64,000 nucleotides of DNA from contig CAZOUN010000001.1 of assembly GCA_964582965.1 (NCBI GenBank), forward strand, positions 4,745 through 68,744. The letters are read 5' to 3'. Under the pieces are notes generated by a model. The model did no database searches and was not told where the DNA came from. It saw only the letters and a list, made by a program, of their open reading frames with translations. Positions 14,832 to 54,333 of the stretch are shown one piece after another (the stretch's first letter is position 1; every line of letters starts with the position of its first letter). This stretch comes from an uncultured Anaerolineales bacterium (GTDB lineage Bacteria > Chloroflexota > Anaerolineae > Anaerolineales > UBA11858). The translations under genes and the position numbers were made by a program.

Positions 14832-14903
14832 AGCTTAAGTCTAAAACAAAAAATCCGTGCTGATGAAATTGTCCAGAATATTTAGAAAATGGAGAGTTTA
14901 CAG

Positions 14904-15605
14904 ATGACGGAAGATAAATTTATCAAAGATCTTCGAGATGTGATTGCAAATGGCGATGAAGATCAGGCCGCTCCTGCGGCCCAAGCAGCCATTGATGCCG
15001 GCGTGAATCCAGGAACCTTGATTAAGGAAGCTATTAACGGTCCCATGGATGAGGTTGGAAAATCATTCCAGAATGGGGATATATTCCTGCCTGAATTAAT
15101 TATGATCGGAGATGCAGCAAGGGTAGCATCTGATGTGATTCTGCCCTATATATCCGTCGAAGAACAGGATGCTTCCTCGGGTGGAAAAGTGGTCATCGGT
15201 ACTATTCAGGGCGATATGCATGATATTGGCAAGAGTATTGTCTCGGCTTACTTGATGTCGACCGGATTTAAAGTAAAAGATTTGGGATCCGACGTTACAC
15301 CAAAGGATTTTATACGGGCAGCGGTAGATGAAAAAGCAGACGTGATCGCGATATCTACTTTGTTATCAACCACCCAGCCCCTCTTCGCCAATATCGTCAA
15401 GACCTTGGTGGATTCTGGACAGCGAGACAAAGTCTACGTTGTTGTAGGGGGTGGCCCCGTGACACCTGAATGGGCAGCAGACATTGGTGCTGATGGTTAT
15501 GGTCGGGATGCTGCGGATGCTGCTGATCTGGTTCGCCAGGTCCTTACATCTGGTGAAAAACCACCCTTCGCCAAACCAATAGTCATCGGTGCTTTGAAAC
15601 AATAA
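14904..15605 (+). CDS. Corrinoid methyl-carrier protein 2
   Basis: GDMHDIGKS (DxHxxG), ISTLLSTT, VVGGGPV. GGAGAG (14890-14895) sits 8 nt before ATG 14904. The upstream in-frame ATG at 14889 is the alternative start. Confidence 0.85.
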   Translation: MTEDKFIKDLRDVIANGDEDQAAPAAQAAIDAGVNPGTLIKEAINGPMDEVGKSFQNGDIFLPELIMIGDAARVASDVILPYISVEEQDASSGGKVVIGTIQGDMHDIGKSIVSAYLMSTGFKVKDLGSDVTPKDFIRAAVDEKADVIAISTLLSTTQPLFANIVKTLVDSGQRDKVYVVVGGGPVTPEWAADIGADGYGRDAADAADLVRQVLTSGEKPPFAKPIVIGALKQ

Positions 15606-15628: not shown

Positions 15629-17005
15629 ATGAATAAACCTGAGATTATCAATATCCTGGATCGATCCCAGAACGGAGAATATTGTACGGTGAAAGAATGG
15701 GATATCAAACGCATTCCCAAGGCCGTGAAAGAAAAACTTGAAAAATACGATCTGAAAGGCGCCTGTGATCCTGAAAACCCGGTCAATATGGATGCCGAGC
15801 TGGCTGACCGCTTTTTTAAGGCTGGTTATGAAATGGCCCTGGATCTGGGCATGCTCTGCGAAACAACCGATAGAATAATCAAAGTGTCTAAGGAAGAATT
15901 AGATGCTGCTTTGGAAAAAGCCCCGTCTGAATTAACTATTGGGACTGGCGATGATGCCACGGTAATAAAAACCCGAACACCATCTGACCCCTATGAATGT
16001 AAATTTGGGGCCTCCCTGGGCATCACCGTATCAGAAGACGTTTGGCCAGCCTTGACCGAAGGTATTGCCCGACAGGAAGCTGTGGACGTGCTGGAAGGCG
16101 GCTCATTGAAGTCCATTTATGGACTGGATGTCATTCCTGATGCACCCTCAGAGACCCTGGTAGGTTTTGAGCAGGCTAAACTGCACGTGGAGATCCGCAA
16201 AAAAGCCGGACGTCCGGGGATGGGCGGTATAGGTCAGATCTCGGCCGTGACTGAATATGGTCAGTTTGGCGGCTACGGTATCCCCGGAGCATTACCTATT
16301 ACAGATCTGTCATTGATCTTGTTCCCGTCGGAACTGAAGGTCAATTATCAGACTTTGCACAAGGTGGTGCATACCCTGAATGTTGGCGGTATGATCTTTG
16401 CCGGTTCCCCGGCTATGATCGGCGGTATGCCCGGCCCACCCGAGGGTGCTGTGCTTTCCTGTATTGCTTGTGCCTTGCTGCAGTATCCGATTTTGCAGGC
16501 GGACGTGGGTGGAGGTGAGATCTACGATATCCGCTATCTGTCCAACGTCAATCGCGATGGCATCTGGGCTCTGAGTGTGACTCACCAGGCCCTCAGCCGC
16601 AATACCAATCTTTTGACCCACGGCATTGCCAACCAGGTTTCTGGTCCGGGAACCAAGGAACTTCTTTATGAAACCCTGGTCGGTGTTTCAACCATTGCAG
16701 CTTCCGGAGCTGCATTCTCAACAGGTCCGCGATCGGCGGGTGGAAAATTGGATGACTATCTATCCCCGCTGGAATGTGGTTTCTGCGCTGAAGTATCACA
16801 CGCGGCTTCTGGACTTTCACTTGAAAAAGTGAATGAGATCGCAAAGGCAGTACTGCCGAAATTTGAAGATTCCATCAAGGATCCCCACATCGGCAAGATT
16901 GTTCAGGATGTTTACGACCTTGAGAATTTCAAAGCCAAACCGGAATGGCAGCAAATGTACGATGAGGTTAAACAAGAAGCGATTGACTTGGGATTACCTC
17001 TCTAA
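15629..17005 (+). CDS. MtmB-family methyltransferase, non-pyrrolysine, divergent singleton (paralog 5)
   Basis: Its N-terminus is the closest of the set to archaeal MtmB (MDAELADRFFKAGYEMALDLGMLCETTDRIIKVSKEELDAAL). GRPGMGGIG places ATA (Ile201) at 16229-16231 on the Pyl-aligned site. The GGYxGG motif is replaced by IGGMPGPPEG. C-terminal VQDVYDLENFKAKPEWQQMYDEV..LGLPL. Confidence 0.85.
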   Translation: MNKPEIINILDRSQNGEYCTVKEWDIKRIPKAVKEKLEKYDLKGACDPENPVNMDAELADRFFKAGYEMALDLGMLCETTDRIIKVSKEELDAALEKAPSELTIGTGDDATVIKTRTPSDPYECKFGASLGITVSEDVWPALTEGIARQEAVDVLEGGSLKSIYGLDVIPDAPSETLVGFEQAKLHVEIRKKAGRPGMGGIGQISAVTEYGQFGGYGIPGALPITDLSLILFPSELKVNYQTLHKVVHTLNVGGMIFAGSPAMIGGMPGPPEGAVLSCIACALLQYPILQADVGGGEIYDIRYLSNVNRDGIWALSVTHQALSRNTNLLTHGIANQVSGPGTKELLYETLVGVSTIAASGAAFSTGPRSAGGKLDDYLSPLECGFCAEVSHAASGLSLEKVNEIAKAVLPKFEDSIKDPHIGKIVQDVYDLENFKAKPEWQQMYDEVKQEAIDLGLPL

Positions 17006-17025: not shown

Positions 17026-17063
17026 TTAGTAACTCCTGTTTGATAACAAACAGGAGTTACTAA
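17026..17063 (+). terminator. Strong hairpin after paralog 5: possible terminator or processing/stability element
   Basis: Perfect 17-bp inverted repeat (17026-17042 / 17047-17063, core GTAACTCCTGTTTG ATAA CAAACAGGAGTTAC) with a 4-nt loop, starting 21 nt after the stop. No T-run follows, so it is not a canonical intrinsic terminator. Confidence 0.4.
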
Positions 17064-17129: not shown

Positions 17130-18506
17130 ATGAAACATAGAGGGCGATTACATGAAGTGATCAGAAGGGCAGAGAACGGCCCAATGATCGAAGAAAAAGA
17201 GTTCGAAAAGAACCTGATCACATCAACTGTCGCACGGCTGATTAAGAAATATAACATCAAATTCAACAAGGAAACGATCGTTCCTGCTGATGATGATCTA
17301 GCTGATCGCCTTTACCAGGCTGGACTCGAATTCGCAGTTGAAGTTGGTATGTTTTGTAAAGATACCAGTCGACGAATTTTGTGGTCACGTGAAGAGTACG
17401 AAGACGCCCTTCGTTATTGTCCATCCGAGGCTATTATTGGCGAGGGAAATGACGCGGTAAAAATATTGGCCAGAAGACCTGAGTCCTCAACTCGTGTAGT
17501 TGTCAGCGGCGGAGCGGTTGGTGTACCTGTGCCTGAAGATATGTATCTTCCGCTCATGATGAGTTATGCCAAGGAACCAGTTATTGATCTGCTCGAGCCG
17601 GCCTCAATACAATCTGCTTATGGTATGCCTATGAAAGCGGGATCCCCCCTGGAAATCATCGCAGGATGGCGGGATGCAGAGCTCGCCTTACAGGTCATTA
17701 ATTTAGCGGGCAGGCCCGGGATGGGTTTGGCTTGCGTCACGATCTCAGCTACCGCCATTGGTCAAATTTCCCCTGCCTCTTATGGCGGATTTCGTCAATC
17801 CGATTGGCATCATTGTTCAGTGATGAGTGAATTTAAGACCAGCTATGATCTGTTGTCTAAGGTTACTCACACGACCCGGATCGGCGCAAATATGGAAGCC
17901 TATCTGAACATCATTTTTGGAGGTTACTTTGGAGGCGCTGAAGGGGTCGCGATTGGATTAGCAGCTGGCCCGATCATTCTTAACCAGAATTATATGGGCA
18001 CCACCTACAGTGTCGCCCCCAGCCATCCATTTCTCCACTGTGGTTCCACGTCGGAGATGATCTGGGCGCAAAGCCTGGCGTTCCAGGCAGTTTCCAGGAA
18101 TACAAATCTCCTGACCGCTTCCATGATCAAACCTGCGGGCGGTCCGGGAACCAGATCGATCCTCTATGAGAATGCGGCACTATCGATAGCCAATGTCACT
18201 TCTGGCCTTTCGGTTGTTGAATCCTGTATGTCTGCCAGCGGCACAAATCCCAGGCATGCCAGTGGGCTGGATTCCAAGATATGTGGTGAAGTTGCCCACG
18301 CAGCTACCGGACTCAGTCGGGAACAGGCCAATAAAATCGTAAAACAGTTGACCGAAAAATATGAAAAGGGCCTGAGTGAAAAACCAGCAGGCAAACCTTT
18401 TGAGGAAGTTTATGATCTTGAGACGATCACACCTACGGTTGAATGGCAGGGAATGTACGACGAAGTAAAGGTTGAGCTGCAGCAGATGGGTCTTCCGATT
18501 AATTAG
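17130..18506 (+). CDS. MtmB-family methyltransferase, non-pyrrolysine (paralog 6, class B)
   Basis: RBS TAGGAGGGG. Motifs VPADDDLADRLYQAG, GEGNDAV, GRPGMGLA with GCT (Ala201) at 17730-17732 on the Pyl-aligned site (Methanosarcina barkeri Pyl202), IFGGYFGGAEG, APSHPFLHC, C-terminal KPFEEVYDLETITPTVEWQGMYDEV..MGLPIN. Confidence 0.9.
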   Translation: MKHRGRLHEVIRRAENGPMIEEKEFEKNLITSTVARLIKKYNIKFNKETIVPADDDLADRLYQAGLEFAVEVGMFCKDTSRRILWSREEYEDALRYCPSEAIIGEGNDAVKILARRPESSTRVVVSGGAVGVPVPEDMYLPLMMSYAKEPVIDLLEPASIQSAYGMPMKAGSPLEIIAGWRDAELALQVINLAGRPGMGLACVTISATAIGQISPASYGGFRQSDWHHCSVMSEFKTSYDLLSKVTHTTRIGANMEAYLNIIFGGYFGGAEGVAIGLAAGPIILNQNYMGTTYSVAPSHPFLHCGSTSEMIWAQSLAFQAVSRNTNLLTASMIKPAGGPGTRSILYENAALSIANVTSGLSVVESCMSASGTNPRHASGLDSKICGEVAHAATGLSREQANKIVKQLTEKYEKGLSEKPAGKPFEEVYDLETITPTVEWQGMYDEVKVELQQMGLPIN

Positions 18507-18514: not shown

Positions 18515-19903
18515 ATGAACATGCTTTTTGAAAACGCAACTATCTTAACCATGAATCCCAAACGGGAGATTATCACCCAGGGTGCAGTGGTGGTTTCGGG
18601 CAGTCAGATCGTTGCAGTCGGTAAAACCAAAGACCTGGTTGAAAAATACCCTGAAAAAAAGAGGATCAATTGCAACGGTAACGTGATCCTGCCTGGCTTG
18701 ATTGATACCCATGTACACACGGCCCAAGCAATGATCCGGGGCTGTGCCGATGACCTGGGCTTGCTCGATTGGTTATTCAAAAGGGTTTGGGTGCTGCAGG
18801 GCAGCTACACTGAGGAAGACGGCCGGGCAAGTGCTGCCTTATGTGCCCTGGAAATGATCAAGTCAGGCACTACTAGTTTTCTGGAATGTATGCTGGCTGA
18901 AGTATACGGCTTTGATGGTGTAGCAGAAGTGCTGATCCAATCAGGTATGCGGGCAGCTATTGGAAAGATCGTCATGGATATGCCCTCCTATGCCGGAGCG
19001 CGAGATGTCATGCATCCGGGCATGGTAGAGGATGGGGAAACTTGCATAGCGAATACCCTTACTGCCTATGATAAATGGAATGGCGCAGGAGATGGCCGCA
19101 TCCAGGTCTGGTTCGGGGCCCGTACCCCTGGTGGCGTCACGCCTGAGTTATATGACCAGATCAGCCAATTAGCGAAAGAGCGTGATATGGGTATCACTGT
19201 CCATCTCTCTGAGGTAAAAGAGGATATTGAATACGCCGTATCTCAAGGTTTTCGATCCCCAATTGAGTTTGCTCAAGAACATGGATTATTGGGGCCTCGG
19301 TCTGTCCTGGCCCACTGTGTCTGGACTGATGAAAAGGATTGGGAACTGATCGCTAAAACCGGTACAACCGTTTCTCACAATCCTGCTTCAAACGCAAAAA
19401 CCGCTACTGGTATCGCTGATGTGCACGGCATGCTGAAAGCTGGCGTGAATGTCACGCTGGGCTGCGATGGTGGTCCAAGCAATAATTCCTATGACATGAT
19501 CCGCGATATGCGCTTGGTGAGCTACCTGGCGAATCTAGAGCATAACGATCCAACCGTAGTGCCTGCGGAAAGTGTTTTAGAGATGGCCACGATTAATGGG
19601 GCCAAAGCACTCGGGCTGGAAGATCAGATCGGTTCGCTTGAAGTGGGAAAGAAAGCAGACTTCATCCTAATCGATATGGATAAACCGCATTTAACCCCGG
19701 CACCAGATCCGGTATCAACCATTGCCTATGCAGCGCATGGAAGTGATGTGGATACCGTTGTGATTGACGGCAAGATTGTTATGGAAAACAGAAAAGTGCT
19801 GTCCTTGGATGAAAGACAGATACTTGACGAAGCACGTAAACGCTACCCGAATGTAGCAAAACGAGGAGATTTAGATATCAAACCCCGTTGGCCAGTAATT
19901 TAG
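18515..19903 (+). CDS. Amidohydrolase, MtaD/AtzA/guanine-deaminase-like subfamily (copy 2)
   Basis: 462 aa with PGLIDTHVH, TVHLSEVKED, LAHCVWTD, LGCDGGPSNN. Starts 8 nt after paralog 6. Confidence 0.82.
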   Translation: MNMLFENATILTMNPKREIITQGAVVVSGSQIVAVGKTKDLVEKYPEKKRINCNGNVILPGLIDTHVHTAQAMIRGCADDLGLLDWLFKRVWVLQGSYTEEDGRASAALCALEMIKSGTTSFLECMLAEVYGFDGVAEVLIQSGMRAAIGKIVMDMPSYAGARDVMHPGMVEDGETCIANTLTAYDKWNGAGDGRIQVWFGARTPGGVTPELYDQISQLAKERDMGITVHLSEVKEDIEYAVSQGFRSPIEFAQEHGLLGPRSVLAHCVWTDEKDWELIAKTGTTVSHNPASNAKTATGIADVHGMLKAGVNVTLGCDGGPSNNSYDMIRDMRLVSYLANLEHNDPTVVPAESVLEMATINGAKALGLEDQIGSLEVGKKADFILIDMDKPHLTPAPDPVSTIAYAAHGSDVDTVVIDGKIVMENRKVLSLDERQILDEARKRYPNVAKRGDLDIKPRWPVI

Positions 19904-19999: not shown

Positions 20000-21154
20000 A
20001 TGGCTAAAAAACTGAGAATCTGGACAATTATTTCCCTGCTGTTAATCGCATCCATGCTGGTTCTATCGGCATGTGGTCCACAACCTGCAGCAGAAGAACA
20101 GGTTGTCGAAGAAGCAGCTGAGGAAACAATAGAAGAATCAGTGGCTATGCAAAAAGCTTGTTTTATCCACAGTTCAACTGTCAGCGATATGGGCTGGACA
20201 TACGCCAATGAACGAGGTCGCTTGTATTTGAATGAAAATGTTGAAGGTGTCGAAACTACATTAATCGAAAACATCTCAGATTTTGGTGGCTCTGATGTCG
20301 AAAAGGTCATTGAGGATTTCATTCAAGCAGGATGCACCATCATTGTTGGCACAAGCTTTGGCTACACCGAGGCGATTGCTGCTAAAGCAGAAGAACATCC
20401 GGATGTGTTTTTCCTCAATGAGAGCCAGTATATACCTGGAGATAACATTCAGTCACATTGGCTCCGCCTCTACGAAGGTTTCTTCCTGACAGGTGTACTG
20501 GCTGGGAGCATGACGGAGAGTGACGTTATCGGTATTGTTGCAACCTTCCCGATTCCTGAATTACTTCGCCGGTTGAATGGTTTCGCACGCGGTGTCCAGG
20601 AAGTCAACCCAGACGCAACTATTAAAGTTGTTTGGATCAACAGCTGGTATGACCCTGCAAAAGAGACAGAGGCAGCTGAAAGTCTCATTGCGGCAGGTGC
20701 AGATGTGGTCCAGCACTTGTCTTCATCGCCCGCATCCCTGCAGGCAGCGCAAGCAGCTGGCATTTTCGGGATCGGCTACCAGAATGACCAGAGTGAATAC
20801 GGCCCAGACGCCTACCTGGGATCAATGCTCATTGAATGGGGTCCTTTGTTTGCGGATTCGATCGAGAAGATCATGGATGGTACCTGGGAAGCAGGAGAGA
20901 TTTGGTATGGCCTGGCAAGCGGCGCGCTTGATGCGGGTCCATTCTCAGACCTTGTTCCTCAAGACGTCCAGGATCTGATTGCTGATTATAAAGCACAGAT
21001 AATTTCGGGCGAATATCAAATCTGGGAAGGCCCGATGTATAGCCAGGATGGCACACTACAGATCCCGGCTGGAGAAGTACGAGATGATGCAGATATCGAC
21101 CAGATCGATTGGTTGCTCCAGGGTATCGACGGCACAATTCCGAGTATGGAGTAG
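20000..21154 (+). CDS. BMP-family (PnrA/Med-like) ABC substrate-binding lipoprotein, transporter 1
   Basis: AAGGAG (19987-19992) precedes ATG 20000; the ORF-track start at 19970 is TTG. Signal peptide with lipobox LSAC. BMP-like core: SDMGWTYANERG, IIVGTSFGY. Confidence 0.8.
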   Translation: MAKKLRIWTIISLLLIASMLVLSACGPQPAAEEQVVEEAAEETIEESVAMQKACFIHSSTVSDMGWTYANERGRLYLNENVEGVETTLIENISDFGGSDVEKVIEDFIQAGCTIIVGTSFGYTEAIAAKAEEHPDVFFLNESQYIPGDNIQSHWLRLYEGFFLTGVLAGSMTESDVIGIVATFPIPELLRRLNGFARGVQEVNPDATIKVVWINSWYDPAKETEAAESLIAAGADVVQHLSSSPASLQAAQAAGIFGIGYQNDQSEYGPDAYLGSMLIEWGPLFADSIEKIMDGTWEAGEIWYGLASGALDAGPFSDLVPQDVQDLIADYKAQIISGEYQIWEGPMYSQDGTLQIPAGEVRDDADIDQIDWLLQGIDGTIPSME

Positions 21155-21180
21155 AAAAGTTTATCAGTAGAAGTAGATCA

Positions 21181-21216
21181 ATGGCAGCCGGCTTTACGGT
21201 TTAGGCCGGCTGCCAT
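21181..21216 (+). promoter_or_regulatory. Intra-operon stem-loop after the substrate-binding-protein gene
   Basis: Perfect 12-bp arms ATGGCAGCCGGC (21181-21192) / GCCGGCTGCCAT (21205-21216) with a 12-nt loop. It is followed by an A-run, not a T-run. Confidence 0.4.
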
Positions 21217-21236
21217 ATCAAAAAATAGGATTTTAG

Positions 21237-22781
21237 ATGACACAGAACCGAGATGATAAGAACCAGTTGCTGATCGATATGCGGGATATTGTCAAGCGTT
21301 TTCCAGGAGTATTGGCAAACGATGGTGCTAATCTTACTCTTCGTCGAGGAGAGGTGCACGCTGTCCTGGGCGAGAACGGAGCAGGCAAGAGCACATTAAT
21401 GAACATCCTTTCCGGTTTATATAGACCAGATAGTGGAGAAATCTATGTTGGCGGCGCACGAAAAGAATTTGGCTCTGCACGTGATGCTCTATTAGCGGGA
21501 ATTGGCATGGTCCATCAGCATTTCTGCCTGGTTGATATTTTTTCTGCCGCAGAGAATATCACTCTCGGAATGAATGAACCTCGAGTTCATTTGAATATGG
21601 CCAATATAGAAGAAGAGATTGGCGAATTAGGACGTAAATACAATCTGGGTATTGATCCCCATGCCAGGATTTGGCAACTTTCTATCGGAGAACAGCAGCG
21701 TGTTGAAATTCTCAAATTACTTTACCGCGATGCACAAGTTCTCATCCTTGATGAACCAACATCGGTTCTCACGCCTCAAGAATCGGACGAGCTCAGTGAT
21801 ACATTACGCCGCCTGGCAGATTCGGGACGCGGGATTATTTATATTAGCCATCGTTTAAGCGAGGTTTGTGCGGTTGCCGATCGAGTGACAATCATTCGTG
21901 GCGGCCGTAATATTGCCACACTTGAGCTTGAAGAAATTGACGAAGCCCGGGTCGCAAATCTTATGCTTGGGGCAGATGTGTCAGATTTTGTGCAAGTAGA
22001 TCACACTAAAAAGCCAGGAAACGTTGTCCTCGAGATCAAGGATTTAGACGTGACCAGCGATCGGGGTTTACCAGCAGTGCGAGCAGCAAATATATCCGTT
22101 CAGGCAGGCCAGATTGTTGGTTTGGCCGGAGTAGCAGGAAATGGCCAAAAAGAACTTGCTGGTGCGATTGCTGGCATGCGCGCTGTTGATTCGGGAATAA
22201 TCAATATTTCAGGCAAGCCCATTGCTGGTAAGGGAACGCGCGAGATTATTAACGAGGGAGTAAGTTTGATCCCGGAAGATCGGACGGGAACAGGATTGGT
22301 AACAAATTTAAGTATTAAAGATAACACCATATTGCGTGGGTATTGGAAGAAACGGTTTTCCCGCGGGATATTGATTAATTGGAAAGAAGTAGAAGAGCAT
22401 ACAGAGAAACTTGTAGAGGATTTTAATGTTGTAACTCCCCATATTAATGAGGAGATTTGGAAACTTTCTGGAGGAAACCAACAACGATTATTGTTGGCCC
22501 GTGAAATGACCTCAGAGCCTAAAGTAATCGTCGCCAGCCACCCTACAAGTGGGCTGGATGTCCAGGCAGCAATGGATGTTCATAATTTATTAATTGAACA
22601 AAGAGATAGGGGAGCAGCTATCCTGGTGATATCTGAAGATTTGGAGGAGCTAATGACGCTTTCTGATCAGATCATTGTGATCTATGACGGGCGCGTAACC
22701 CCTCCGATTCCAGCGACAGAAGCAGATCGATCAGAGTTGGGATTATTGATGATGGGGTCCGGCGTGAAGGAGCAAGTGTAA
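21237..22781 (+). CDS. ABC transporter ATP-binding protein, duplicated-ATPase CUT2/nucleoside type, transporter 1
   Basis: 514 aa with two ABC domains. Walker A GENGAGKST, LSIGEQQRVEI, second-domain GVAGNGQKEL, LSGGNQQR. Confidence 0.9.
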   Translation: MTQNRDDKNQLLIDMRDIVKRFPGVLANDGANLTLRRGEVHAVLGENGAGKSTLMNILSGLYRPDSGEIYVGGARKEFGSARDALLAGIGMVHQHFCLVDIFSAAENITLGMNEPRVHLNMANIEEEIGELGRKYNLGIDPHARIWQLSIGEQQRVEILKLLYRDAQVLILDEPTSVLTPQESDELSDTLRRLADSGRGIIYISHRLSEVCAVADRVTIIRGGRNIATLELEEIDEARVANLMLGADVSDFVQVDHTKKPGNVVLEIKDLDVTSDRGLPAVRAANISVQAGQIVGLAGVAGNGQKELAGAIAGMRAVDSGIINISGKPIAGKGTREIINEGVSLIPEDRTGTGLVTNLSIKDNTILRGYWKKRFSRGILINWKEVEEHTEKLVEDFNVVTPHINEEIWKLSGGNQQRLLLAREMTSEPKVIVASHPTSGLDVQAAMDVHNLLIEQRDRGAAILVISEDLEELMTLSDQIIVIYDGRVTPPIPATEADRSELGLLMMGSGVKEQV

Positions 22782-23869
22782 TGAAGATCAAAATTGAGAA
22801 ACGACTTGACGCGCCCCGCATCCTAGTAATCCTAATGCCTCTGGTTGCGGTAATTATTGCATTTGTTATCAGCGGGATCTTAATTGCCACAACTGGAGCA
22901 AATCCTTTCGCAGCTTTTGATACGATGTGGAAAGGTGCCTTTGGGACAACATATTCTCTATCAGAAACAATTGTTAGTTCTATTCCCCTTATGCTTGCAG
23001 GACTCGGCGTAGGTATTGCTTCACATGCGAAACTTTGGAATATTGGTGGCGATGGCCAGATCATCATGGGTGCTTTTGCCGCTTCTGGTTTGGCCTTGTT
23101 CTATCCTGATCTACCACGGCCGATCTTAATTGGGGGGATGATGATTCTTGGCTTCTTGGCTGGAGGCTTATGGGCAGTTATTGCTGCGCTGCCACGCATC
23201 TACTTGGGTATAAATGAGATCATCACTACAATGATGTTTAATTTCATTGCCGGCTTTTGGGTAAGTTATATCGTTCAAGGTCCATGGCGGGATCCGATTT
23301 TGGTGGGCTTCCCATTTACGGCAAAATTTACAAAAGAAGCTTGGTTGCCAAGATTCTTCGGAACCAGGATACACCTTGGATTAGTGATTGCATTGATCGC
23401 CGCGGTAATTATCGCCATCTTGCTATATCGTTCAAAATGGGGTTATGAATTAAGGGTGATCGGCGGAAGTCTTGATTCTGCAAATTACGCGGGAATTAAT
23501 GTCAAGAGAAGTTTGCTATTGGCGATGTTGCTCAGTGGAGGTTTGGCGGGCTTGGCAGGGATGGCCGAGGTTTCCGGGATTCTTCACAGATTACAAGAAG
23601 GCATTGCTGCCGGGGCGGGTTTCAGCGCTTTTATTCTGGTTGCATTGGCTAATGGAAACCCGTTTGGAATAATAGTATCAGGTTTTTTGCTGGGCGCTTT
23701 ATTAACTGGAGGGACGTCTGCCCAAACGATGGGAGTGCCGCCACAAATAGCAGATATTATGCAAGGTCTTATTCTATTCTTTGTTCTTGCTTCGACTTTC
23801 TTTACACGGTATCGGGTAAAGTTTGATCGGCCTGAACTTAAGAGCGCTAATGTGGAAAGCGGAGATTGA
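22781..23869 (+). CDS. ABC transporter permease, transporter 1
   Basis: 362 aa polytopic membrane protein. Its start overlaps the ATPase stop. Typical CUT2/BMP-system permease layout. Confidence 0.85.
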   Translation: MKIKIEKRLDAPRILVILMPLVAVIIAFVISGILIATTGANPFAAFDTMWKGAFGTTYSLSETIVSSIPLMLAGLGVGIASHAKLWNIGGDGQIIMGAFAASGLALFYPDLPRPILIGGMMILGFLAGGLWAVIAALPRIYLGINEIITTMMFNFIAGFWVSYIVQGPWRDPILVGFPFTAKFTKEAWLPRFFGTRIHLGLVIALIAAVIIAILLYRSKWGYELRVIGGSLDSANYAGINVKRSLLLAMLLSGGLAGLAGMAEVSGILHRLQEGIAAGAGFSAFILVALANGNPFGIIVSGFLLGALLTGGTSAQTMGVPPQIADIMQGLILFFVLASTFFTRYRVKFDRPELKSANVESGD

Positions 23870-23871
23870 TT

Positions 23872-24798
23872 ATGGATGTATATATGTTCAGCGCTTTACT
23901 TCACACAATGATCACCGCTGGAACACCTATCGTTTATGCAGCACTTGGGGAATTGATCACAGAACGAGTCGGTATTCTCAACCTTGGCCTTGAGGGGGTA
24001 ATGTTAATTGGATCCATCGCTGGTTTTGCTACAGCCTCCCATTTTTCAAACCATTGGATAGGCCTGGGAGCTGCGATCATTGCCGGCGCATTGACAGGGT
24101 TATTCTTCGCGTTATTATGTGTGGGATTTAAGGTGGATCAAGTCGTAGCCGGGATCGCATTATCTACTTTTGGAATTGGATTCAGCGCTTTTGTTGGAAA
24201 ACCCTGGCTGGGAAAACCATTTTCTGTGCCGTTTGAGGACATAAGACTGCCGATTTTGGCCGATATTCCCATTATTGGTGAACCGTTTTTTAACCAGGAT
24301 GCCCTTGTATATATCTCCTACTTGCTGGTTCCGATTCTCTGGTATTTTGTTTACAAAACACGCCCTGGACTGCACCTGCGCTCAGTGGGAGAGAATCCAC
24401 GAGCGGCAGACACTTTGGGAATTAATGTTACCCGGATGCGATATGTTTACACGATGATAGGTTGTGCAATTGCTGCTATCGGTGGCGCTTATCTAACAAT
24501 GGCCTTTGTTCCCACCTGGTTTGAAGAAATTACGGTTGGTCGGGGCTGGATTGCTGTCTCACTAGTGATATTCTCGGGATGGAATCCATTAATCGTTATT
24601 TTTGGTGCCTACTTGTTTGGGGGTCTGGACGCTGCCACTCTTTATATCCAGGCAATAGGTACAAATATTCCCTCTCATTTCCTGGGAATGGGCCCATATA
24701 TTCTAACGATCCTTGTATTGGTTCTTGCGGCTCGTAAACGCCAGGGAGGGTTGGGGCCAGCGGCTCTTACGATACCATACGACAGTGAAGGGCAGTAG
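23872..24798 (+). CDS. ABC transporter permease, transporter 1 (second subunit)
   Basis: Polytopic membrane protein. GGAGA (23861-23865) precedes ATG 23872; the ORF-track TTG at 23866 is the alternative start. Confidence 0.85.
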   Translation: MDVYMFSALLHTMITAGTPIVYAALGELITERVGILNLGLEGVMLIGSIAGFATASHFSNHWIGLGAAIIAGALTGLFFALLCVGFKVDQVVAGIALSTFGIGFSAFVGKPWLGKPFSVPFEDIRLPILADIPIIGEPFFNQDALVYISYLLVPILWYFVYKTRPGLHLRSVGENPRAADTLGINVTRMRYVYTMIGCAIAAIGGAYLTMAFVPTWFEEITVGRGWIAVSLVIFSGWNPLIVIFGAYLFGGLDAATLYIQAIGTNIPSHFLGMGPYILTILVLVLAARKRQGGLGPAALTIPYDSEGQ

Positions 24799-24842: not shown

Positions 24843-25319
24843 ATGTCAAAGGTCGAAATAAAATTTCAGGTCAACGGCGAAGAAAAAACTGTAAAGACAG
24901 CCCCTGACCGAACTCTGTTAAAGGTCTTGCGAGAAGACTTGAATCTGACAGGCACCAAAGATGGCTGCAGCCAGGGGGACTGCGGCGCCTGTTTGGTGAT
25001 GATGAATGGCAAGGCAGTAAATTCCTGCCTGGTTCTGGCTCCTCAGGCAGACGGGGCAAAGATAATAACCGTAGAGGGATTGGCCGAAAATGGAGAACTC
25101 AGCAATCTGCAGCAGGCTTTCGCGGAAAGATGGGGATTTCAGTGCGGATTTTGCACACCTGGCATGTTGATCTCCAGTTATGCCCTGTTGCAGAGTAATC
25201 CTGATCCAACCCTGGAGGAGATCAAGCGAGCACTGGCTGGAAATCTCTGCCGTTGTACTGGCTATAAGCCAATATTTGATTCGGTCAAGATGGCTGCTGA
25301 ACTGACAATGGATAAATAA
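24843..25319 (+). CDS. Molybdenum hydroxylase [2Fe-2S] small subunit, set 2
   Basis: 158 aa with CSQGDCGACLV..NSC and CGFCTPGM...CRCTGY. Paralog of 8197-8670. Confidence 0.9.
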   Translation: MSKVEIKFQVNGEEKTVKTAPDRTLLKVLREDLNLTGTKDGCSQGDCGACLVMMNGKAVNSCLVLAPQADGAKIITVEGLAENGELSNLQQAFAERWGFQCGFCTPGMLISSYALLQSNPDPTLEEIKRALAGNLCRCTGYKPIFDSVKMAAELTMDK

Positions 25320-25321: not shown

Positions 25322-26731
25322 ATGAATTATCAAAGAATGTTAGAAACTCTTGATAAAGCCGAAACCGGTCCCATTCTCGAGGAAAAGGATTTTGATAAAA
25401 AGCAGATAGGAGCCGCGATCCAGGAAATCGTCAAGAGATTCGATATCTCTTGGCCAAAAGACATTATGGTTCCTTCAGATGACCAACTCGCCGACCGCTT
25501 ATTTGAAGCGGGGTTGACTCTTGCCGAAGAAAGTGGACTGTTCTGCGTGGATACTGGGCGGCATATGACCTGGACACGCAATGAACTGCTGGATAGATTG
25601 GGAAATATTCCATCTCGAATAACGCTTGGTACTGGCGACGATGAAGTGACTATTAAAAGGCGTTTGCCTGATGAAAATTCGCGAATTGTGGTCAGCGGGG
25701 GAGCATATGGTGTCCCCGTGCCCGAAGATCTCTATCTGCCAGTTATGCTAAGTTATGCTCAAGAACCCAGCCTAGATTTCATTGAAGGACCAATGTTAAC
25801 AACAACTCATGGACGGCCGCCTCGTGCTAACTCACCCTGGGAATCCGTTTGGTGCTGGCAGGAGAAGGATCTTGCGCTGGAAGCAGCTCGACGAGCCGGA
25901 AGACCGGGCATTGCTATTGGGACTGCGGTAGGCTCAGCAAGCGAACTCGGTGAATTGTCAACCATGACTTGTGGTGGATTTAGGACAACTGATAAACACC
26001 ATCTGGTATTTACCAGTGAATTGAAAGTTAACTATGCAGAGCTGACCAAGGCTGTTCATTTTATGCACACGGGTGCAAAAGTACTGGGATACTATAATCC
26101 TATCTTTGGTGGATATGGAGGCGGTGTTGAAGGAATGGCTATCCTGATGGTTGCAGGCCAGATTCTGCTTGATGCCTGTTTCTATACATCAATAGTTAAT
26201 GCTGGACCCGGGCATGCTCATCTCAGTTGTAATAGTTATCCAGCAATGTTATCTGGCCAAGCGCTAGCTTTCCAAGCCTTAAGCCGTAATACGAACTTGC
26301 TGTTTTCGTCTTTCCTTAGACCAACTGCTGGCCCTTGTGTGCCCCACATATTTGATGAGATCGCTGCCATTGTCATAGCTTCAGCGCCATCCGGAATCTC
26401 TTTTATCGAAGGTGTGCATACCGCTACTGGACGATTTGAAAGTCATTGTTCTGGACTTGAAGCGCGTTTCATGGCGGATATCACACATGCTGCTGAAAAA
26501 CTAACCCGGCTTGACGCTGATGGTGTGGTTAAGAAAATTGTGGAGAAGTATGAAGATAAGCATAGAACGATCCAAAAGGGGAAGTCATTTTCTCAATGTT
26601 ACGATCTGGAGTCTTTGAAGCCTACGCCAGAATGGCAAGGGATGTATGAGGATGCTTGCATGGAGATGGAAAAAGAATACGGCCTGATTATTTCTAATCC
26701 CCCCCGTGAACATAACGTTGATAACAAATAA
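25322..26731 (+). CDS. MtmB-family methyltransferase, non-pyrrolysine (paralog 7, class A)
   Basis: Starts 2 nt after the 2Fe-2S subunit stop. Motifs VPSDDQLADRLFEAG, GTGDDEV, GRPGIAIG, IFGGYGGGVEG, NAGPGHAHLSC, C-terminal FSQCYDLESLKPTPEWQGMYEDA. Confidence 0.88.
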   Translation: MNYQRMLETLDKAETGPILEEKDFDKKQIGAAIQEIVKRFDISWPKDIMVPSDDQLADRLFEAGLTLAEESGLFCVDTGRHMTWTRNELLDRLGNIPSRITLGTGDDEVTIKRRLPDENSRIVVSGGAYGVPVPEDLYLPVMLSYAQEPSLDFIEGPMLTTTHGRPPRANSPWESVWCWQEKDLALEAARRAGRPGIAIGTAVGSASELGELSTMTCGGFRTTDKHHLVFTSELKVNYAELTKAVHFMHTGAKVLGYYNPIFGGYGGGVEGMAILMVAGQILLDACFYTSIVNAGPGHAHLSCNSYPAMLSGQALAFQALSRNTNLLFSSFLRPTAGPCVPHIFDEIAAIVIASAPSGISFIEGVHTATGRFESHCSGLEARFMADITHAAEKLTRLDADGVVKKIVEKYEDKHRTIQKGKSFSQCYDLESLKPTPEWQGMYEDACMEMEKEYGLIISNPPREHNVDNK

Positions 26732-26907: not shown

Positions 26908-29178
26908 ATGACGCATAATGTGATTGGAAAACCATCCCCCAACCTAATCAATTATCAGATCCTGACCGGGGGTGCTCACTATTTGGACGATCTGAGCCTG
27001 GAAGGCACACTGGTTGGTAAATTACTTTACAGCCAGCATCCTTGTGCATTGATCAAAAAAATTGATATTGCTAAGGCCAAAAACCTGCCCGGTGTTGTCG
27101 CAGTACTTACCCATGAGGACATTCCCGGTGAGAACAGCTTCTTGCTGCAAACACCAGACCAGCCGGTCTTGATGTCGGACCGGGTGAATTACCTGGGAGA
27201 TGCGGTTGCGGCCGTAGCTGCCGAAACAGAAGAAGCTGCCCAGGCAGCCCTTGCTGCCATTGAAGTGATTTATGAACCTCTGCCGGGTACTTACAATATC
27301 GAGGATTCCATGAATACGGATGCTTCCAAGGTATTGCCCGGTTACGAGAATATTATTCCAGCCAGCACGCACGAACAGGGTGATCTGGAGGCTGGTTTCC
27401 AAGAAGCGGATGTGATCATTGAAAACACGTACCAATCTCAGTTGATCGAACAAGCTTTTCTAGAACCTGAAGGAGCTTTGTCCTATATCGACCCGGAAGG
27501 GAATATGGTGGTATATGCATCTAATCAGGCCCCTAATCGGGACAGGATGCAGATTGCCCGCTCTTTGAATATGCCGGAGCATAAAGTCAGGGTAATCACA
27601 CCTTATGTCGGGGGAGCCTTTGGAGGTAAAGACGAAGTCCACGTCCAGATCCATGCCGCCTTGCTGACTCAGGCAACCGGTAGGCCGGTCCAGATTCTCA
27701 GGACTCGAGAGGAATCCATCCTTACCCACGTTAAACGTCACCCGATCACGGTCCATCACAAGCTGGGAGCAACAAAGGACGGTAAGATCACAGCAGTCAG
27801 CCTCAAGGCTATTGCAGATACAGGTCCTTATGTAAATGCAGGAATACATGTGATGTGGTTTGTTGGAACGGTTGCCAGTGGGCCTTATTATTTGCCCAAT
27901 GTGCGAGTTGAAACTCTTGCCGTAAGAACCAATAATCCGATTGGCGGAGCCATGCGCGGTTTTGGCGGACCTCAAGTCTGTCTGGCCCATGAGGGCCAGA
28001 TGGATGAATTGGCCAAGGCTCTGAACATGGATCCGGTTGAAATCCGCCGTATCAATGCCATCCAGAGCGGCCAGGTCACACCAAATGGAGGTATTGTCCG
28101 CAATGCGGATGCGGTCCCTGCCAGTATTGATGAAGCAGCTCGTATGATTGGCTGGGAGAAACGTGATCGAATCGACCGACAACCGGAGCCGCGCTTGAGA
28201 AGAGGCTGGGGAATGGCAGCGAGCTGGTTTGTGATTGGATTGGGAAGGGGACAGGATAACGCAGGCGCGATCGTTGAAATGGCTCCGGATGGCTCGGTTT
28301 TGATTCGGACCGGTGCTGTAGAAATGGGTCAGGGAGTGTTCACGACTCTGGGGGCTATGGTGGCCGAAAACCTGGGTATTGATCTGGGATCGATCAGGGT
28401 CATTGGCCCGGATACCGATATTACGCCGGATGCGATGCAAACCGCAGCCTCTAGGCAGACGTTCATGTCAGGAAATGCTGTCAATAAAGCTTCCCTGGTG
28501 ATCAGGAATAGCCTGCTGGAAACAGCCGCAGAGGAAACTGGCCTGCCGATAGAGATCCTGGATCTCAAGAGTGGACAGCTCCGGGCGGAAGGTGAGGAAT
28601 TATCAATTTCCATTCCGGAACTGGCTGCCAAGGCTACGGTTGCCAATCGCCCCATGTATGCCAATGGGTTTTATGTGATGGATTTCCCTGAAGAAAAAAC
28701 CAATGAAGGCACTTTTTATGCAGTTGGACCCTCAGCATTCGGCACCCAGATTGCGCAGGTCCTGGTGGATATTGAAACCGGGGAAGTGCAAATTGAGAAG
28801 CTAATAGCAGTCCAAAATGTTGGCAAGATTATCAATTACGGGGGCGCCTATGGTCAGATGGAAGGAGGCTGCGTGATGGGCATAGGCTATGCCCTGATGG
28901 AAGACCTGGTAGTTGAACAGGGAAAGACCCTGAATGATTCCCTGGAAAGCTACCTCATTCCAACCGTGATGGATATCCCGGATATTGAGATCAAATTACT
29001 AGAGATCCCCGAGCCCTTTGGTCCATTTGGTGCCGTGGGTATTGGTGAACCATCTATGATGGGAACTGCTCCAGCGATTGCCAATGCAGTGTCAGATGCA
29101 ATAGGAAAAAGGATGACCCAAATACCATTGACCCCGGAACGAGTCCTGGCGGCCATTGAAGGAGAAGACAATGAATAA
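26908..29178 (+). CDS. Molybdenum hydroxylase large (molybdopterin) subunit, xanthine dehydrogenase family, set 2
   Basis: 756 aa with GGAFGGKDE, GGAMRGFGGPQ, GIGEPSM. Clear paralog of 9878-12145. RBS GGAAGGAGG. Confidence 0.88.
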   Translation: MTHNVIGKPSPNLINYQILTGGAHYLDDLSLEGTLVGKLLYSQHPCALIKKIDIAKAKNLPGVVAVLTHEDIPGENSFLLQTPDQPVLMSDRVNYLGDAVAAVAAETEEAAQAALAAIEVIYEPLPGTYNIEDSMNTDASKVLPGYENIIPASTHEQGDLEAGFQEADVIIENTYQSQLIEQAFLEPEGALSYIDPEGNMVVYASNQAPNRDRMQIARSLNMPEHKVRVITPYVGGAFGGKDEVHVQIHAALLTQATGRPVQILRTREESILTHVKRHPITVHHKLGATKDGKITAVSLKAIADTGPYVNAGIHVMWFVGTVASGPYYLPNVRVETLAVRTNNPIGGAMRGFGGPQVCLAHEGQMDELAKALNMDPVEIRRINAIQSGQVTPNGGIVRNADAVPASIDEAARMIGWEKRDRIDRQPEPRLRRGWGMAASWFVIGLGRGQDNAGAIVEMAPDGSVLIRTGAVEMGQGVFTTLGAMVAENLGIDLGSIRVIGPDTDITPDAMQTAASRQTFMSGNAVNKASLVIRNSLLETAAEETGLPIEILDLKSGQLRAEGEELSISIPELAAKATVANRPMYANGFYVMDFPEEKTNEGTFYAVGPSAFGTQIAQVLVDIETGEVQIEKLIAVQNVGKIINYGGAYGQMEGGCVMGIGYALMEDLVVEQGKTLNDSLESYLIPTVMDIPDIEIKLLEIPEPFGPFGAVGIGEPSMMGTAPAIANAVSDAIGKRMTQIPLTPERVLAAIEGEDNE

Positions 29179-30544
29179 TCGTGGAAGGCTGCTGGAAGTA
29201 CTGAACAAGGCTGAAACTGGTCCTATTATTGACGAAAAGGAATTCGAAGCCAAACTTATCACACAGACAATTCGCAAACTTATTAAAAAGTATGATCTAA
29301 AGTTTGACAAATCCGTCTTGGTGCCAGCCAAAGACGAGTTGGCAGACCGTATCTTTCAGGCAGGTTTGGAATTTGCGGTTGAAGTGGGTATGTTCTGTCA
29401 GGACACCAGCCGCAGGATACTATGGACTGAAGGTGAATATCTCCGCGGTCTGGAAAGCTGTAGTGGGAAGGCTGTGATGGGTACAGGTAATGATACGGTT
29501 GAAATTATTGCCCGGACACCTGAATCGAATATAATTCCAACTTTTGTGGGCGGCCCCTTTGGTGTACCGGTTCCCGAGGATATGTTTGTTCCTATTATGC
29601 TGAGTTATGCCCAGGAACCACTGATCGATGTGATAGAAAATCCAACCATCGAAAAAGTATATGGTTATCCTGTTAAGGCCGATTCGCCCTGGGAAGTGTT
29701 GGGTGGCTGGCGAGAAGCTGAGCTTGCTTTTGAAACAATCAATCGAGCCGGACGGCCCGGTATGCCGATTGGCTGTATTGAAATTTCACCTACTGCCCTG
29801 GCCCAGATTTCTGCCGCCTCCTGGGGAGGTGTCCGTCCCAGCGACTGGCACCATGTCTCAGCGCCAAGTGAATTTAAAACAAATTACGACCTGCTTTCAA
29901 AGACAGCCCATATCACTCGAATCGGCGCTAACATGGAAGGCTACCTGAATATTATCTATGGCGGATTCCTGGGCGGTGCGGAAGGAGTGGCAATAGGTTT
30001 GGCCGCCGGCATGATCGTTGTCAACCAAAACTACATGGGCACGACCATCAGCGCCAGTTCGGCCCATCCCTTCCTGCACAGCGATGCGACCCCGGAATCT
30101 ATCTGGGCCCAGAGCCTGGCATTCCAGGCTATCTCACGCAATAGCAAAATGTTGACCGCTTCCCTCTGCAAACCAGCAGCAGGGCCAGGAACAAAGACGC
30201 TTCTCTATGAATGTGCGGCTTTTGTTTTGTCCGGCGTGGCTTCTGGTCTGGCCGTACCCCAAGCTGCTATGACAGCTACTGGAACAAACCGCTGCCATTG
30301 CAGTGGGTTGGAATCCCGTTTCAGTGCTGAGGTGTCCCGGGCGGCGGCAGGAATGAGCAGGGAACAGGTCGATGAGATTACCAAAAAACTAATGGCGATC
30401 TATGAAGACGATTTACCCAACAAGCCTGTGGGTAAACCATTCCAGGAAGTATATGATATGAAATCTCTCCAGCCAACAGCGGAGTGGAACGGTTTATACG
30501 AAGAAGTAAAAGAGGAATTAATGGGTATGGGAGTGCCCCTCTAA
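29171..30544 (+). CDS. MtmB-family methyltransferase, non-pyrrolysine (paralog 8, class B)
   Basis: GGAGAAG (29161) precedes ATG 29171. The start overlaps the large-subunit stop by 8 nt (ATGAATAA, 29171-29178). The N-terminus MNNRGRLLEVLNKAETGP aligns with paralog 6. Also GRPGMPIG, IYGGFLGGAEG, SSAHPFLHS. Confidence 0.88.
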   Translation: MNNRGRLLEVLNKAETGPIIDEKEFEAKLITQTIRKLIKKYDLKFDKSVLVPAKDELADRIFQAGLEFAVEVGMFCQDTSRRILWTEGEYLRGLESCSGKAVMGTGNDTVEIIARTPESNIIPTFVGGPFGVPVPEDMFVPIMLSYAQEPLIDVIENPTIEKVYGYPVKADSPWEVLGGWREAELAFETINRAGRPGMPIGCIEISPTALAQISAASWGGVRPSDWHHVSAPSEFKTNYDLLSKTAHITRIGANMEGYLNIIYGGFLGGAEGVAIGLAAGMIVVNQNYMGTTISASSAHPFLHSDATPESIWAQSLAFQAISRNSKMLTASLCKPAAGPGTKTLLYECAAFVLSGVASGLAVPQAAMTATGTNRCHCSGLESRFSAEVSRAAAGMSREQVDEITKKLMAIYEDDLPNKPVGKPFQEVYDMKSLQPTAEWNGLYEEVKEELMGMGVPL

Positions 30545-33049: not shown

Positions 33050-33052
33050 TCT

Positions 33053-33739: not shown

Positions 33740-33743
33740 ACCC

Positions 33744-54297: not shown

Positions 54298-54333
54298 AGA
54301 TACCTTTGTTTTGACTATAATATTTTTTTGGAA

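Follow-up and report, generated by a model that had tools for sequence, protein, structure and literature searches.

Two BMP-family ABC importers encoded among non-pyrrolysine MtmB-family methyltransferases of an uncultured Anaerolineales bacterium are candidate carriers of N-methylated purine-type bases

The DNA analysed here is a stretch of 64,000 nucleotides (nt) from an uncultured Anaerolineales bacterium (GenBank:GCA_964582965.1, contig CAZOUN010000001.1, positions 4,745 to 68,744 of the forward strand; hereafter the window), in which a map of the open reading frames (ORFs) and profile searches revealed two complete ATP-binding cassette (ABC) importers of the BMP/CUT2 type, designated transporter 1 and transporter 2. 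Both importers, the lipoboxes of their binding proteins (SBP1 and SBP2, respectively) and a hairpin following each binding-protein gene were found where an earlier reading of the letters alone (the original prediction) had placed them, and the methyltransferase cluster that it had described around them was identified by Pfam as a set of MtmB-family (PF05369) paralogs. On the basis of gene order and sequence comparison, it can be said with fairly high confidence that the two transporters would import the methyl-donor substrates of these neighbouring methyltransferases. Our preferred reading of the whole chain, to which we give a probability of about 0.55, is that N-methylated purine-type bases are imported and feed corrinoid-dependent demethylation, followed by deamination and hydroxylation. 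The original prediction had likewise favoured nucleobase-like methyl donors over simple methylamines or betaines, and it gained support on several sides: 1) by both sequence and fold, the binding proteins are related to the base binders AtzT and 3S99, 2) the link to MtmB and corrinoid genes is conserved down to 49% identity and is absent beside canonical purine pockets, 3) remodelling of the pocket affects just those positions that in AtzT contact the N-alkyl groups of hydroxyatrazine, 4) members of the same clades are paired elsewhere with Rieske oxygenases similar to SxtT and then to NdmA/NdmB, and 5) purine-type deaminases and xanthine-dehydrogenase-family enzymes share the putative operons. 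As transporters, the two systems are a variant within a known family; the comparisons suggest that they point toward an undescribed pathway.

SBP1 and SBP2 are members of the BMP/PnrA-like family (PF02608), with scores of 163.8 and 177.9 bits, respectively, against a cut-off of 24.1, and with profile positions 2–292 and 3–298 of 301 covered. The ATPases, 514 amino acids long in transporter 1 and 506 in transporter 2, each contain two ABC_tran stretches, and the best named CUT2 similarities of both in NCBIfam were AraG, XylG, RbsA and MglA; both systems are CUT2-type ABC importers (TC 3.A.1.2). The start codon of SBP1 (ATG at position 20000) is preceded by AAGGAG, and the N-terminus of the protein (MAKKLRIWTIISLLLIASMLVLSAC) carries a signal peptide that closes in the lipobox LSAC with Cys25 (codon 20072–20074), a residue invariant across 15 relatives in the clade alignment. 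The signal peptide of SBP2 (...SIVAAGC) closes in the lipobox AAGC, in which the -3 position is occupied by a non-canonical Ala, and its Cys23 is invariant across 20 relatives. In both proteins the lipobox Cys is followed by an acidic Pro/Ala/Glu tether, which is disordered in the structural model of SBP2. With a signal peptide, a lipobox and an invariant Cys, both are predicted to be bacterial lipoproteins. By its transketolase, the organism belongs among uncultured Chloroflexota (90% identity to a Chloroflexota metagenome-assembled genome, about 58% to Anaerolineae). Chloroflexota are generally described as single-membraned, which is consistent with lipid-anchored binding proteins. Between the two transporters, the binding proteins are 28% identical, the ATPases 45% and the permeases 36 and 40%; because these values are only 28–45%, a recent duplication was ruled out and the two systems are regarded as old paralogs. 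The top-scoring NCBIfam models were those of a "putative B6 ABC transporter" (NF047927–NF047930), a label that was rejected since all subunits fell far under the cut-offs (binding proteins, 77 and 124 bits versus 400; ATPases, 458 and 501 versus 670; permeases, 181–232 versus 400–465).

The nearest solved relatives of the binding proteins are proteins that bind free bases. The best PDB matches of SBP1 were AtzT (PDB:6pi5; E 1.9e-77, in a nearly full-length alignment) and 3s99 (E 5.6e-75), and those of SBP2 were 3s99 (E 1.2e-32) and AtzT (E 6.5e-29), the nucleoside binders being farther by sequence than these two (E 1e-6 to 1e-22). When an AlphaFold2 model of SBP2 (pLDDT 87) was compared using Foldseek, AtzT and 3s99 were again the top matches (TM 0.80), followed in order by BmpD, Lbp-guanosine and PnrA; the first 22 matches were all of the BMP family (target-normalised TM 0.77–0.86), and the sugar binders were weaker by about 15 orders of magnitude. 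As modelled, SBP2 has a two-lobed periplasmic-binding-protein fold nearest to the BMP structures. AtzT, from Pseudomonas sp. ADP (PDB:6PI5/6PI6), has been crystallised with guanine (dissociation constant 0.11 µM) and with 2-hydroxyatrazine, and 3S99, a BMP lipoprotein of Brucella melitensis, holds adenine (PMC6834077). PnrA/TmpC, BmpD, BmpA and Lbp share with the window systems the Pfam family, the lipoprotein anchoring and the operon plan (binding protein, fused ATPase and two permeases), but they bind the ribose moiety of their ligands and ranked lower in Foldseek. In contrast to nucleoside-binding BMP systems, the window contained no nucleoside phosphorylase, nucleoside hydrolase or ribokinase in the profile searches, and the nearest relatives of its binding proteins take free bases. 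Judged by relative similarity and gene context, SBP1 and SBP2 are probably not nucleoside binders; of the "BMP-family (nucleoside-type)" designation in the original prediction the family therefore stands, while nucleoside-type gives way to base-type, as indicated by AtzT and 3S99.

Ligands of AtzT lie sandwiched between Tyr45 and Trp194, with bonds to Ser97, the Phe98 NH, Glu165, Asn218 and Asn220; of the two Asn residues, Asn218 is opposite the N2 amine of guanine and in steric conflict with the isopropyl arm of hydroxyatrazine, and Asn220 adjoins its ethyl arm (PMC6834077). Nine AtzT positions (45, 97, 98, 139, 165, 169, 194, 218 and 220) were used as a pocket signature and were mapped by alignment onto all retrieved relatives, the mapping being firm for SBP1 and weaker for SBP2. 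The signature reads YSFTENWNN in AtzT, WSF[AT]ENWND in AtzT-like canonical pockets and WSFREGWHD in 3S99-like canonical pockets; for the window proteins it is WSFFERWLS in SBP1 (WSF[FL]ERWLS in its clade) and WSFAVMWCF in SBP2 (WSFAVMWCE in most of its relatives). SBP1 and SBP2, which have the family and fold of AtzT and 3S99, retain together with essentially all relatives the W-S-F...W pattern, namely the aromatic sandwich (Tyr/Trp45 and Trp194), Ser97 and the Phe98 backbone contact. Glu165 is kept in SBP1 but absent from SBP2. The polar positions 165, 218 and 220 are Glu/Leu/Ser in SBP1 and Val/Cys/Phe in SBP2, that is, Asn218/Asn220 of AtzT (His/Asp in 3S99) are replaced by Leu/Ser and Cys/Phe, respectively, and Thr139 and Asn169 are likewise substituted. 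His/Asn218 and Asp220, conserved in about 90 canonical binders, are thus missing from both window proteins, and the substitutions at 165, 218 and 220 rule out the canonical guanine/adenine binder class for them. The two positions that became Leu and Ser in SBP1 are those at which AtzT abuts the N2 amine of guanine and the N-alkyl arms of its other ligand, hydroxyatrazine. These alignments indicate that the pockets of SBP1 and SBP2 derive from a purine-base-binding ancestor and that the residues reading the ring edge have turned hydrophobic or small, as would be expected for a base that bears an N-methyl group. The genomic partners differ as well, being corrinoid methyltransferases for SBP1 and SBP2 rather than atrazine or purine-salvage genes.

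Ten full-length MtmB-family genes and one partial copy are spread over 47 kb of the window (17–47387), at positions 17, 3041, 4493, 5918, 15629, 17130, 25322, 29156, 36774, 39592 and 45993. With mutual identities of 29–61%, they form an unusually dense expansion for a family with almost no known substrates. No in-frame stop was present in any of the eleven genes. The pyrrolysine position (Pyl202) of Methanosarcina barkeri MtmB (PDB:1L2Q) aligned with Ala in the 17130 paralog, and the motif GRPGxxx was followed by Gly, Ala, Ser, Thr or Ile in nine full-length paralogs and in the partial copy, the 39592 paralog having no match to the motif. A pyrrolysine-dependent monomethylamine methyltransferase (true MtmB) was ruled out, as none of the paralogs has an in-frame amber codon. 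The cluster also encodes five corrinoid (B12-binding) proteins, a methyl-tetrahydrofolate (methyl-THF):corrinoid methyltransferase, a URO-D-like methyltransferase and RACo, genes by which a corrinoid-dependent three-component methyltransferase system is predicted. Three GntR/UTRA regulators, four amidohydrolases and two sets of xanthine-dehydrogenase (XDH)-family subunits complete the cluster. The amidohydrolase encoded immediately upstream of SBP1 had methylthioadenosine/S-adenosylhomocysteine deaminase, AtzA and 8-oxoguanine deaminase as its best PDB matches, and guanine deaminase was also among the best solved relatives of the cluster amidohydrolases. The molybdenum (Mo) subunits are about equally similar to XDH, 4-hydroxybenzoyl-CoA reductase and nicotinate dehydrogenase, and their matches do not tell xanthine-type from nicotinate- or benzoyl-CoA-type substrates. 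No carriers of the BCCT, OpuA or Amt families were found in the window by profile searches.

To compare gene neighbourhoods, homologous loci fetched by SBP1 or SBP2 searches (given L-numbers) were surveyed by tblastn with window queries only. Nine relatives of 49–88% identity were examined in detail, and MtmB and corrinoid genes are neighbours of every one. Among them are SBP1 relatives of 88, 57 and 50% identity, whose surroundings also include amidohydrolase and XDH-family genes, and SBP2 relatives of 71, 55 and 49% identity; the association of the transporter with MtmB and corrinoid protein persists down to 49% identity. The genes of L004 form a compact 11-gene run (GntR, corrinoid protein, two MtmB, amidohydrolase, three XDH subunits and four transporter genes), and L006 and L007 consist of a regulator, a corrinoid protein, MtmB and the transporter only, purine-catabolic genes being absent. 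Orthologues of the 15629/17130 MtmB pair (78–93% identity) occur beside SBP1-type genes in L002 and L004, those of the 39592 type (46–62%) beside SBP2-type genes in 13 fetched loci, and one of the 45993 type (72%) beside the SBP2 relative in L006, indicating that each transporter type has an MtmB orthologue of its own that accompanies it. In the genome collection the closest SBP1 relatives, from metagenome-assembled genomes (MAGs) of Anaerolineales, were 46% identical; two loci with such relatives, L009 and L010, have an amidohydrolase and XDH and are free of MtmB within reach. As a control, MtmB was present in one of the 80 genomic loci retrieved with the SBP1 alignment, which mostly have canonical pockets; the exception was L040, from the Clostridia MAG AS09scLD_108. 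Loci with 3S99-like pockets had an MtmB or Rieske gene in 0 of 37 cases. The SBP2 alignment retrieved 80 metagenomic loci, 34 of them of at least 8 kb, and among these 34 MtmB was found in 13 and a Rieske/VanA_C oxygenase directly beside the transporter in 14; among SBP2-type loci of at least 12 kb, 17 of 20 had an MtmB or a Rieske gene. The pocket AVMWCE was paired with MtmB in 12 of 14 loci and YALWCE with a Rieske gene in 6 of 6. These results suggest that partner type (MtmB or Rieske) follows pocket type and that, among the relatives compared, the remodelled pocket is confined to clades adjoining a demethylase gene.

The Rieske partners of the same binding-protein clades occur in other, probably aerobic, organisms. 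Rieske/VanA_C genes lie directly beside BMP genes in Betaproteobacteria (L051, L055, L056, L061, L064, L075, L077 and L081) and in metagenomes (L095, L116, L119, L121, L131, L136, L146, L147, L149, L159 and L167). For the full-length Rieske proteins of L131 and L056, the best solved match was SxtT/SxtDIOX, which hydroxylate saxitoxin, a purine-like alkaloid, followed by NdmA/NdmB (E 1e-27 to 1e-42), the methylxanthine N1- and N3-demethylases, carnitine oxygenase reaching only about 1e-6. The Rieske protein of L146, which is the catalytic-domain half of a split enzyme, gave the same ranking with weaker scores. The proposed chain is similar to the NdmABCDE caffeine/methylxanthine system of Pseudomonas putida CBB5 in its stepwise N-demethylation of purines followed by XDH-type oxidation, and in other genomes Ndm-like Rieske oxygenases are encoded next to members of these binding-protein clades; NdmABCDE is, however, O2-dependent (Rieske/non-heme iron), whereas no Rieske gene is present in the window, where a Co(I) corrinoid would serve instead. 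To our knowledge, the Ndm cluster has not been reported to include a BMP transporter. Literature searches found no published link of BMP transporters with Rieske/Ndm-like oxygenases or MtmB homologs, and none between MtmB and purines.

Two of the fetched loci have arrangements of their own. At 10076–14689 of L040, a binding protein with the near-canonical pocket WSFREGWND is followed directly by a corrinoid protein, MtmB and an amidohydrolase; a GntR gene is present, and the ATPase and permease genes are not between the binding-protein gene and the corrinoid/MtmB genes. In L096 (contig JAANMT010003187.1), an MtmB/corrinoid pair, an Ndm-like Rieske gene and an XDH-family gene surround one SBP2-type transporter.

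Whereas the component genes and their association across genomes were observed directly, the ligand and every catalytic step of the following scheme are what we infer from them. The lipid-anchored binding protein would capture a planar N-heteroaromatic, most likely an N-methylated purine-type base, between two Trp residues, retaining the hydrogen bonds from Ser, the Phe backbone NH and, in SBP1, Glu; the methyl-bearing edge would lie against Leu/Ser in SBP1 and against Val/Met/Cys/Phe in SBP2. Upon import by the permease pair and the fused ATPase, the cognate non-pyrrolysine MtmB-family methyltransferase would transfer the N-methyl group to the Co(I) corrinoid protein, the methyl-THF:corrinoid methyltransferase would pass it to tetrahydrofolate, and RACo would re-reduce oxidised corrinoid. 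The TRZ/ATZ-/guanine-deaminase-like amidohydrolases would then deaminate the demethylated base and the XDH-family enzymes would hydroxylate it, with the GntR/UTRA regulators probably sensing the substrates. The hairpin after each binding-protein gene may stabilise the upstream transcript or partly stop readthrough, so that the binding protein is made in excess. It is possible, at odds somewhat short of even, that an anaerobic pathway not described before starts with these importers, and that in it non-pyrrolysine MtmB proteins demethylate purine-type bases. If so, the substrates could be methylxanthines (caffeine, theobromine) or methylated adenine or guanine from nucleic acids, the methyl groups would go to tetrahydrofolate and the bases to purine fermentation, and whole BMP clades would be demethylase-coupled, to Ndm-like Rieske oxygenases with O2 and to MtmB/corrinoid systems without it.

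Several observations weigh against N-methylated purine-type bases as the substrates. When the entire window was scanned against Rfam with E values up to 1 admitted, only two chance matches were obtained, and purine, xanthine and cobalamin riboswitches were absent. The Rieske partners are closer to SxtT than to NdmA. Many of the calls of no neighbour come from short contigs, and the pocket mapping of SBP2 is less secure at its 27–28% identity to AtzT. In addition, with Glu165 gone, few of the hydrogen bonds to a purine are left in SBP2, the Mo subunits are as near to nicotinate dehydrogenase as to XDH, making pyridine-type substrates such as trigonelline possible, and the only characterised non-pyrrolysine MtmB, MtqB, uses quaternary amines. 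These last points are also those that favour the import of quaternary ammonium or other cationic methyl donors (choline, tetramethylammonium, betaines and N-methylpyridinium compounds such as trigonelline), especially by transporter 2. The Trp/Trp/Phe box of SBP2 could hold a quaternary ammonium group and serve as a cation-π cage: its pocket (Trp/Ser/Phe/Ala/Val/Met/Trp/Cys/Phe) lacks Glu165 and both Asn contacts, and most of its relatives carry one acidic residue, the Glu at position 220. The MtqB/MtqC system of Methanococcoides methylutens Q3c, the sole characterised system with a non-pyrrolysine MtmB homolog, acts on tetramethylammonium and choline (PMC13044021). Betaines and carnitine are also demethylated by Rieske oxygenases of the superfamily found beside the BMP genes, and the Mo enzymes of the window are no nearer to XDH than to nicotinate dehydrogenase. 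Nevertheless, although they are a serious rival for transporter 2, we consider cationic donors unlikely overall, as the liganded BMP-family structures among the Foldseek matches all hold a purine or pyrimidine base, a nucleoside or riboflavin, the Rieske partners are Ndm-like (about 1e-27 to 1e-42) rather than similar to carnitine oxygenase (about 1e-6), SBP1 keeps three purine hydrogen-bond contacts, and the co-operonic amidohydrolases of the amino-purine/triazine-deaminase type would be superfluous to a betaine pathway.

MtqB/MtqC and the betaine/carnitine demethylases of the MttB superfamily resemble the window system in using three-component corrinoid methyl transfer with a reductive activase, and MtqB in particular has an MtmB-family, pyrrolysine-free first methyltransferase. 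The substrates of MtqB and MttB are quaternary amines, usually carried by BCCT or OpuA-type transporters, whereas the carriers in the window are of the BMP/CUT2 type; the window operons, unlike MtqB/MttB systems, add purine-type deaminases and Mo hydroxylases.

The deaminases and XDH-type enzymes next to transporter 1 could also be served by ordinary unmethylated purine bases or nucleosides, with MtmB genes merely sharing the same catabolic island. The ligands of AtzT (guanine) and 3S99 (adenine) agree with this, as do L009 and L010, in which an amidohydrolase and XDH occur with no MtmB within reach. This explanation seems improbable, since the His/Asn218 and Asp220 of the canonical binders are substituted in both window proteins, the SBP2-type loci L006 and L007 have no purine-catabolic genes, each transporter type has kept its own MtmB orthologue, and MtmB is absent from the canonical-pocket loci, L040 excepted. 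Scavenging of a cofactor-related heterocycle, such as a corrinoid lower-ligand base (benzimidazoles, 2-methyladenine), vitamin B6 or riboflavin, is very improbable: although the best NCBIfam models are the B6 set, BMP-family RfuA binds riboflavin, dimethylbenzimidazole would suit a hydrophobic planar pocket and the cluster is heavily corrinoid-dependent, the B6-model scores of the binding proteins are low (77 and 124 of the 400 bits), no cobamide-assembly genes were seen in the window or the related loci, members of the same clades are paired with Rieske oxygenases in loci devoid of corrinoid genes, and the transporter genes lie mid-run in putative catabolic operons under GntR/UTRA regulators.

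Import of N-methylated purine-type bases would be of interest in two respects. The enzymes of anaerobic N-demethylation of caffeine and other methylpurines are not known, and the transporter link offers a candidate; in a 2026 preprint on anaerobic caffeine demethylation, caffeine-methyl label was recovered in methane and Anaerolineae were enriched, with no enzyme named, the enrichment being no more than circumstantial. Furthermore, about 1000 non-pyrrolysine MtmB homologs had no assigned function, except MtqB, as of March 2026 (PMC13044021), and the link gives this orphan family a testable candidate substrate class together with defined protein pairs, namely SBP1 with the 15629 and 17130 MtmB proteins and SBP2 with those at 39592 and 45993. 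The pocket signature could serve as an annotation marker that separates ordinary purine-base binders from demethylase-coupled ones, and the importers point to a possible oxygen-free route for the demethylation of methylated purines.

The features of the two transporters and of their surroundings are listed in Table 1.

Table 1. Positions of the transporter genes, neighbouring genes and putative regulatory sites in the window
Feature	Position	Strand	Evidence or remark
SBP1, lipoprotein BMP-family binding protein, transporter 1	20000–21154	+	Pfam Bmp, E 5.8e-48
ATPase 1, fused double-domain, CUT2-type	21237–22781	+	two ABC_tran stretches
Permease 1, transporter 1	22781–23869	+	BPD_transp_2, E 9.4e-39
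Permease 2, transporter 1	23866–24798	+	BPD_transp_2, E 8.4e-40
SBP2, lipoprotein BMP-family binding protein, transporter 2	44796–45887	-	Pfam Bmp, E 3.1e-52
ATPase 2, fused double-domain	43170–44690	-	ABC_tran twice, E 1.5e-53
Permease 1, transporter 2	42090–43127	-	BPD_transp_2, E 3.6e-40
Permease 2, transporter 2	41138–42088	-	BPD_transp_2, E 1e-30
Hairpin, SBP1–ATPase gap	21181–21216	+	14-pair stem, no U tract
Hairpin, SBP2–ATPase gap	44730–44765	-	15-pair stem, then T-rich tail TGGATTTTCT
Corrinoid protein, upstream of transporter 1	14889–15605	+	Pfam
MtmB paralog, non-pyrrolysine	15629–17005	+	Pfam
MtmB paralog, non-pyrrolysine	17130–18506	+	Pfam
Deaminase-type amidohydrolase, upstream of transporter 1	18515–19903	+	Pfam
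2Fe-2S subunit, downstream of transporter 1	24843–25319	+	profile search
MtmB paralog	25322–26731	+	profile search
XDH-family Mo subunit	26908–29178	+	profile search
MtmB paralog	29156–30544	+	profile search
Promoter-like site, head of transporter 2 run	48264–48236	-	11/12 match
Corrinoid protein, head of transporter 2 run	48104–47445	-	profile search
MtmB paralog, head of transporter 2 run	47387–45993	-	profile search
MtmB paralog, tail of transporter 2 run	40992–39592	-	profile search
GntR/UTRA regulator, tail of transporter 2 run	39586–38834	-	profile search
Corrinoid protein, tail of transporter 2 run	38799–38167	-	profile search
MtmB paralog, tail of transporter 2 run	38150–36774	-	profile search
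Corrinoid protein, tail of transporter 2 run	36734–36078	-	profile search
Terminator-like hairpin, end of transporter 2 run	36058–36030	-	terminator scan
Methyl-THF:corrinoid methyltransferase (MtrH-like, above its cut-off)	32195–33049	+	profile search
228-amino-acid ORF without family match, overlapping the annotated RACo start	33053–33739	+	ORF map
RACo corrinoid reductive activase	33687–35564	+	profile search
URO-D/MtaA-like candidate second methyltransferase	12163–13392		profile search

Transporter 1 is flanked by an MtmB–MtmB–amidohydrolase block on one side and a 2Fe-2S/MtmB/Mo-subunit/MtmB block on the other. Judging from gene spacing and from promoter- and terminator-like sites, the runs of MtmB, corrinoid and transporter genes with short gaps are putative operons, and transporter 2 would lie inside a single minus-strand operon extending from the strong promoter-like site at 48264 to the terminator-like site at 36030. 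For permease 2 of transporter 1, for which the gene call on L001 is of 308 amino acids, the likelier start is the ATG at 23872, which has GGAG ahead of it. In the methyl-transfer back end (32195–35564), NF005719 scored 310 bits against a cut-off of 259. It was also noticed that a free-standing protein of 127 amino acids, corresponding to the C-terminal domain of allophanate hydrolase, is encoded at 35592–35975.

The hairpins in the gaps between binding-protein and ATPase genes were both more stable than expected from shuffled sequences. The SBP1–ATPase intergenic region folded with a free energy (dG) of -29.4 (z -5.6), with 0 of 200 shuffles as stable; the SBP2–ATPase hairpin (z -6.1) was likewise matched by 0 of 200 shuffles, was scored terminator-like in the terminator scan and resembles a terminator or attenuator. 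The corresponding gap also contains long perfect hairpins, unrelated in sequence, in L002, L004, L005, L007, L008, L093, L097, L102 and L123. Across all loci, the excess over random stretches was modest, with 55% of the gaps versus 34% of the random stretches, a control that was not matched for G+C content, folding at -20 kcal/mol or below. Because clean hairpins recur in the MtmB-linked loci, and leaving the statistic over all loci aside, it is a reasonable, ordinary explanation that the hairpins may give more message for the binding protein than for the membrane components, as the original prediction had proposed. In L158, the binding-protein/ATPase gap (approximately 7333–7436) is instead occupied by an AACGTTC/AACGTTG tandem repeat and has no simple hairpin. 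Another hairpin, at 17026–17063 within the 124-nt gap separating two MtmB genes, is a perfect palindrome of 17 pairs (TTAGTAACTCCTGTTTG...CAAACAGGAGTTACTAA) that reads identically on both strands.

The only other membrane proteins encoded in the cluster are two small YdcZ-type proteins (DMT half-size; 9404–9862 and 48320–48760), which could export demethylated products; the gene at 48320–48760 is just upstream of the transporter 2 run, on the strand opposite to both of its neighbours. At the left end of the window, an amidohydrolase of the cytosine-deaminase type (1766–3019; 384 bits versus a cut-off of 438 for NF005748) is grouped with a GntR regulator and three MtmB paralogs in a vicinity free of transporters, a context that points to a different amino-heterocycle substrate for this module. 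Just outside the cluster, a minus-strand segment (52903–55982) encodes a SurE nucleotidase, a HAD hydrolase and a pyridine-nucleotide disulfide oxidoreductase, of which SurE could release nucleosides from nucleotides.

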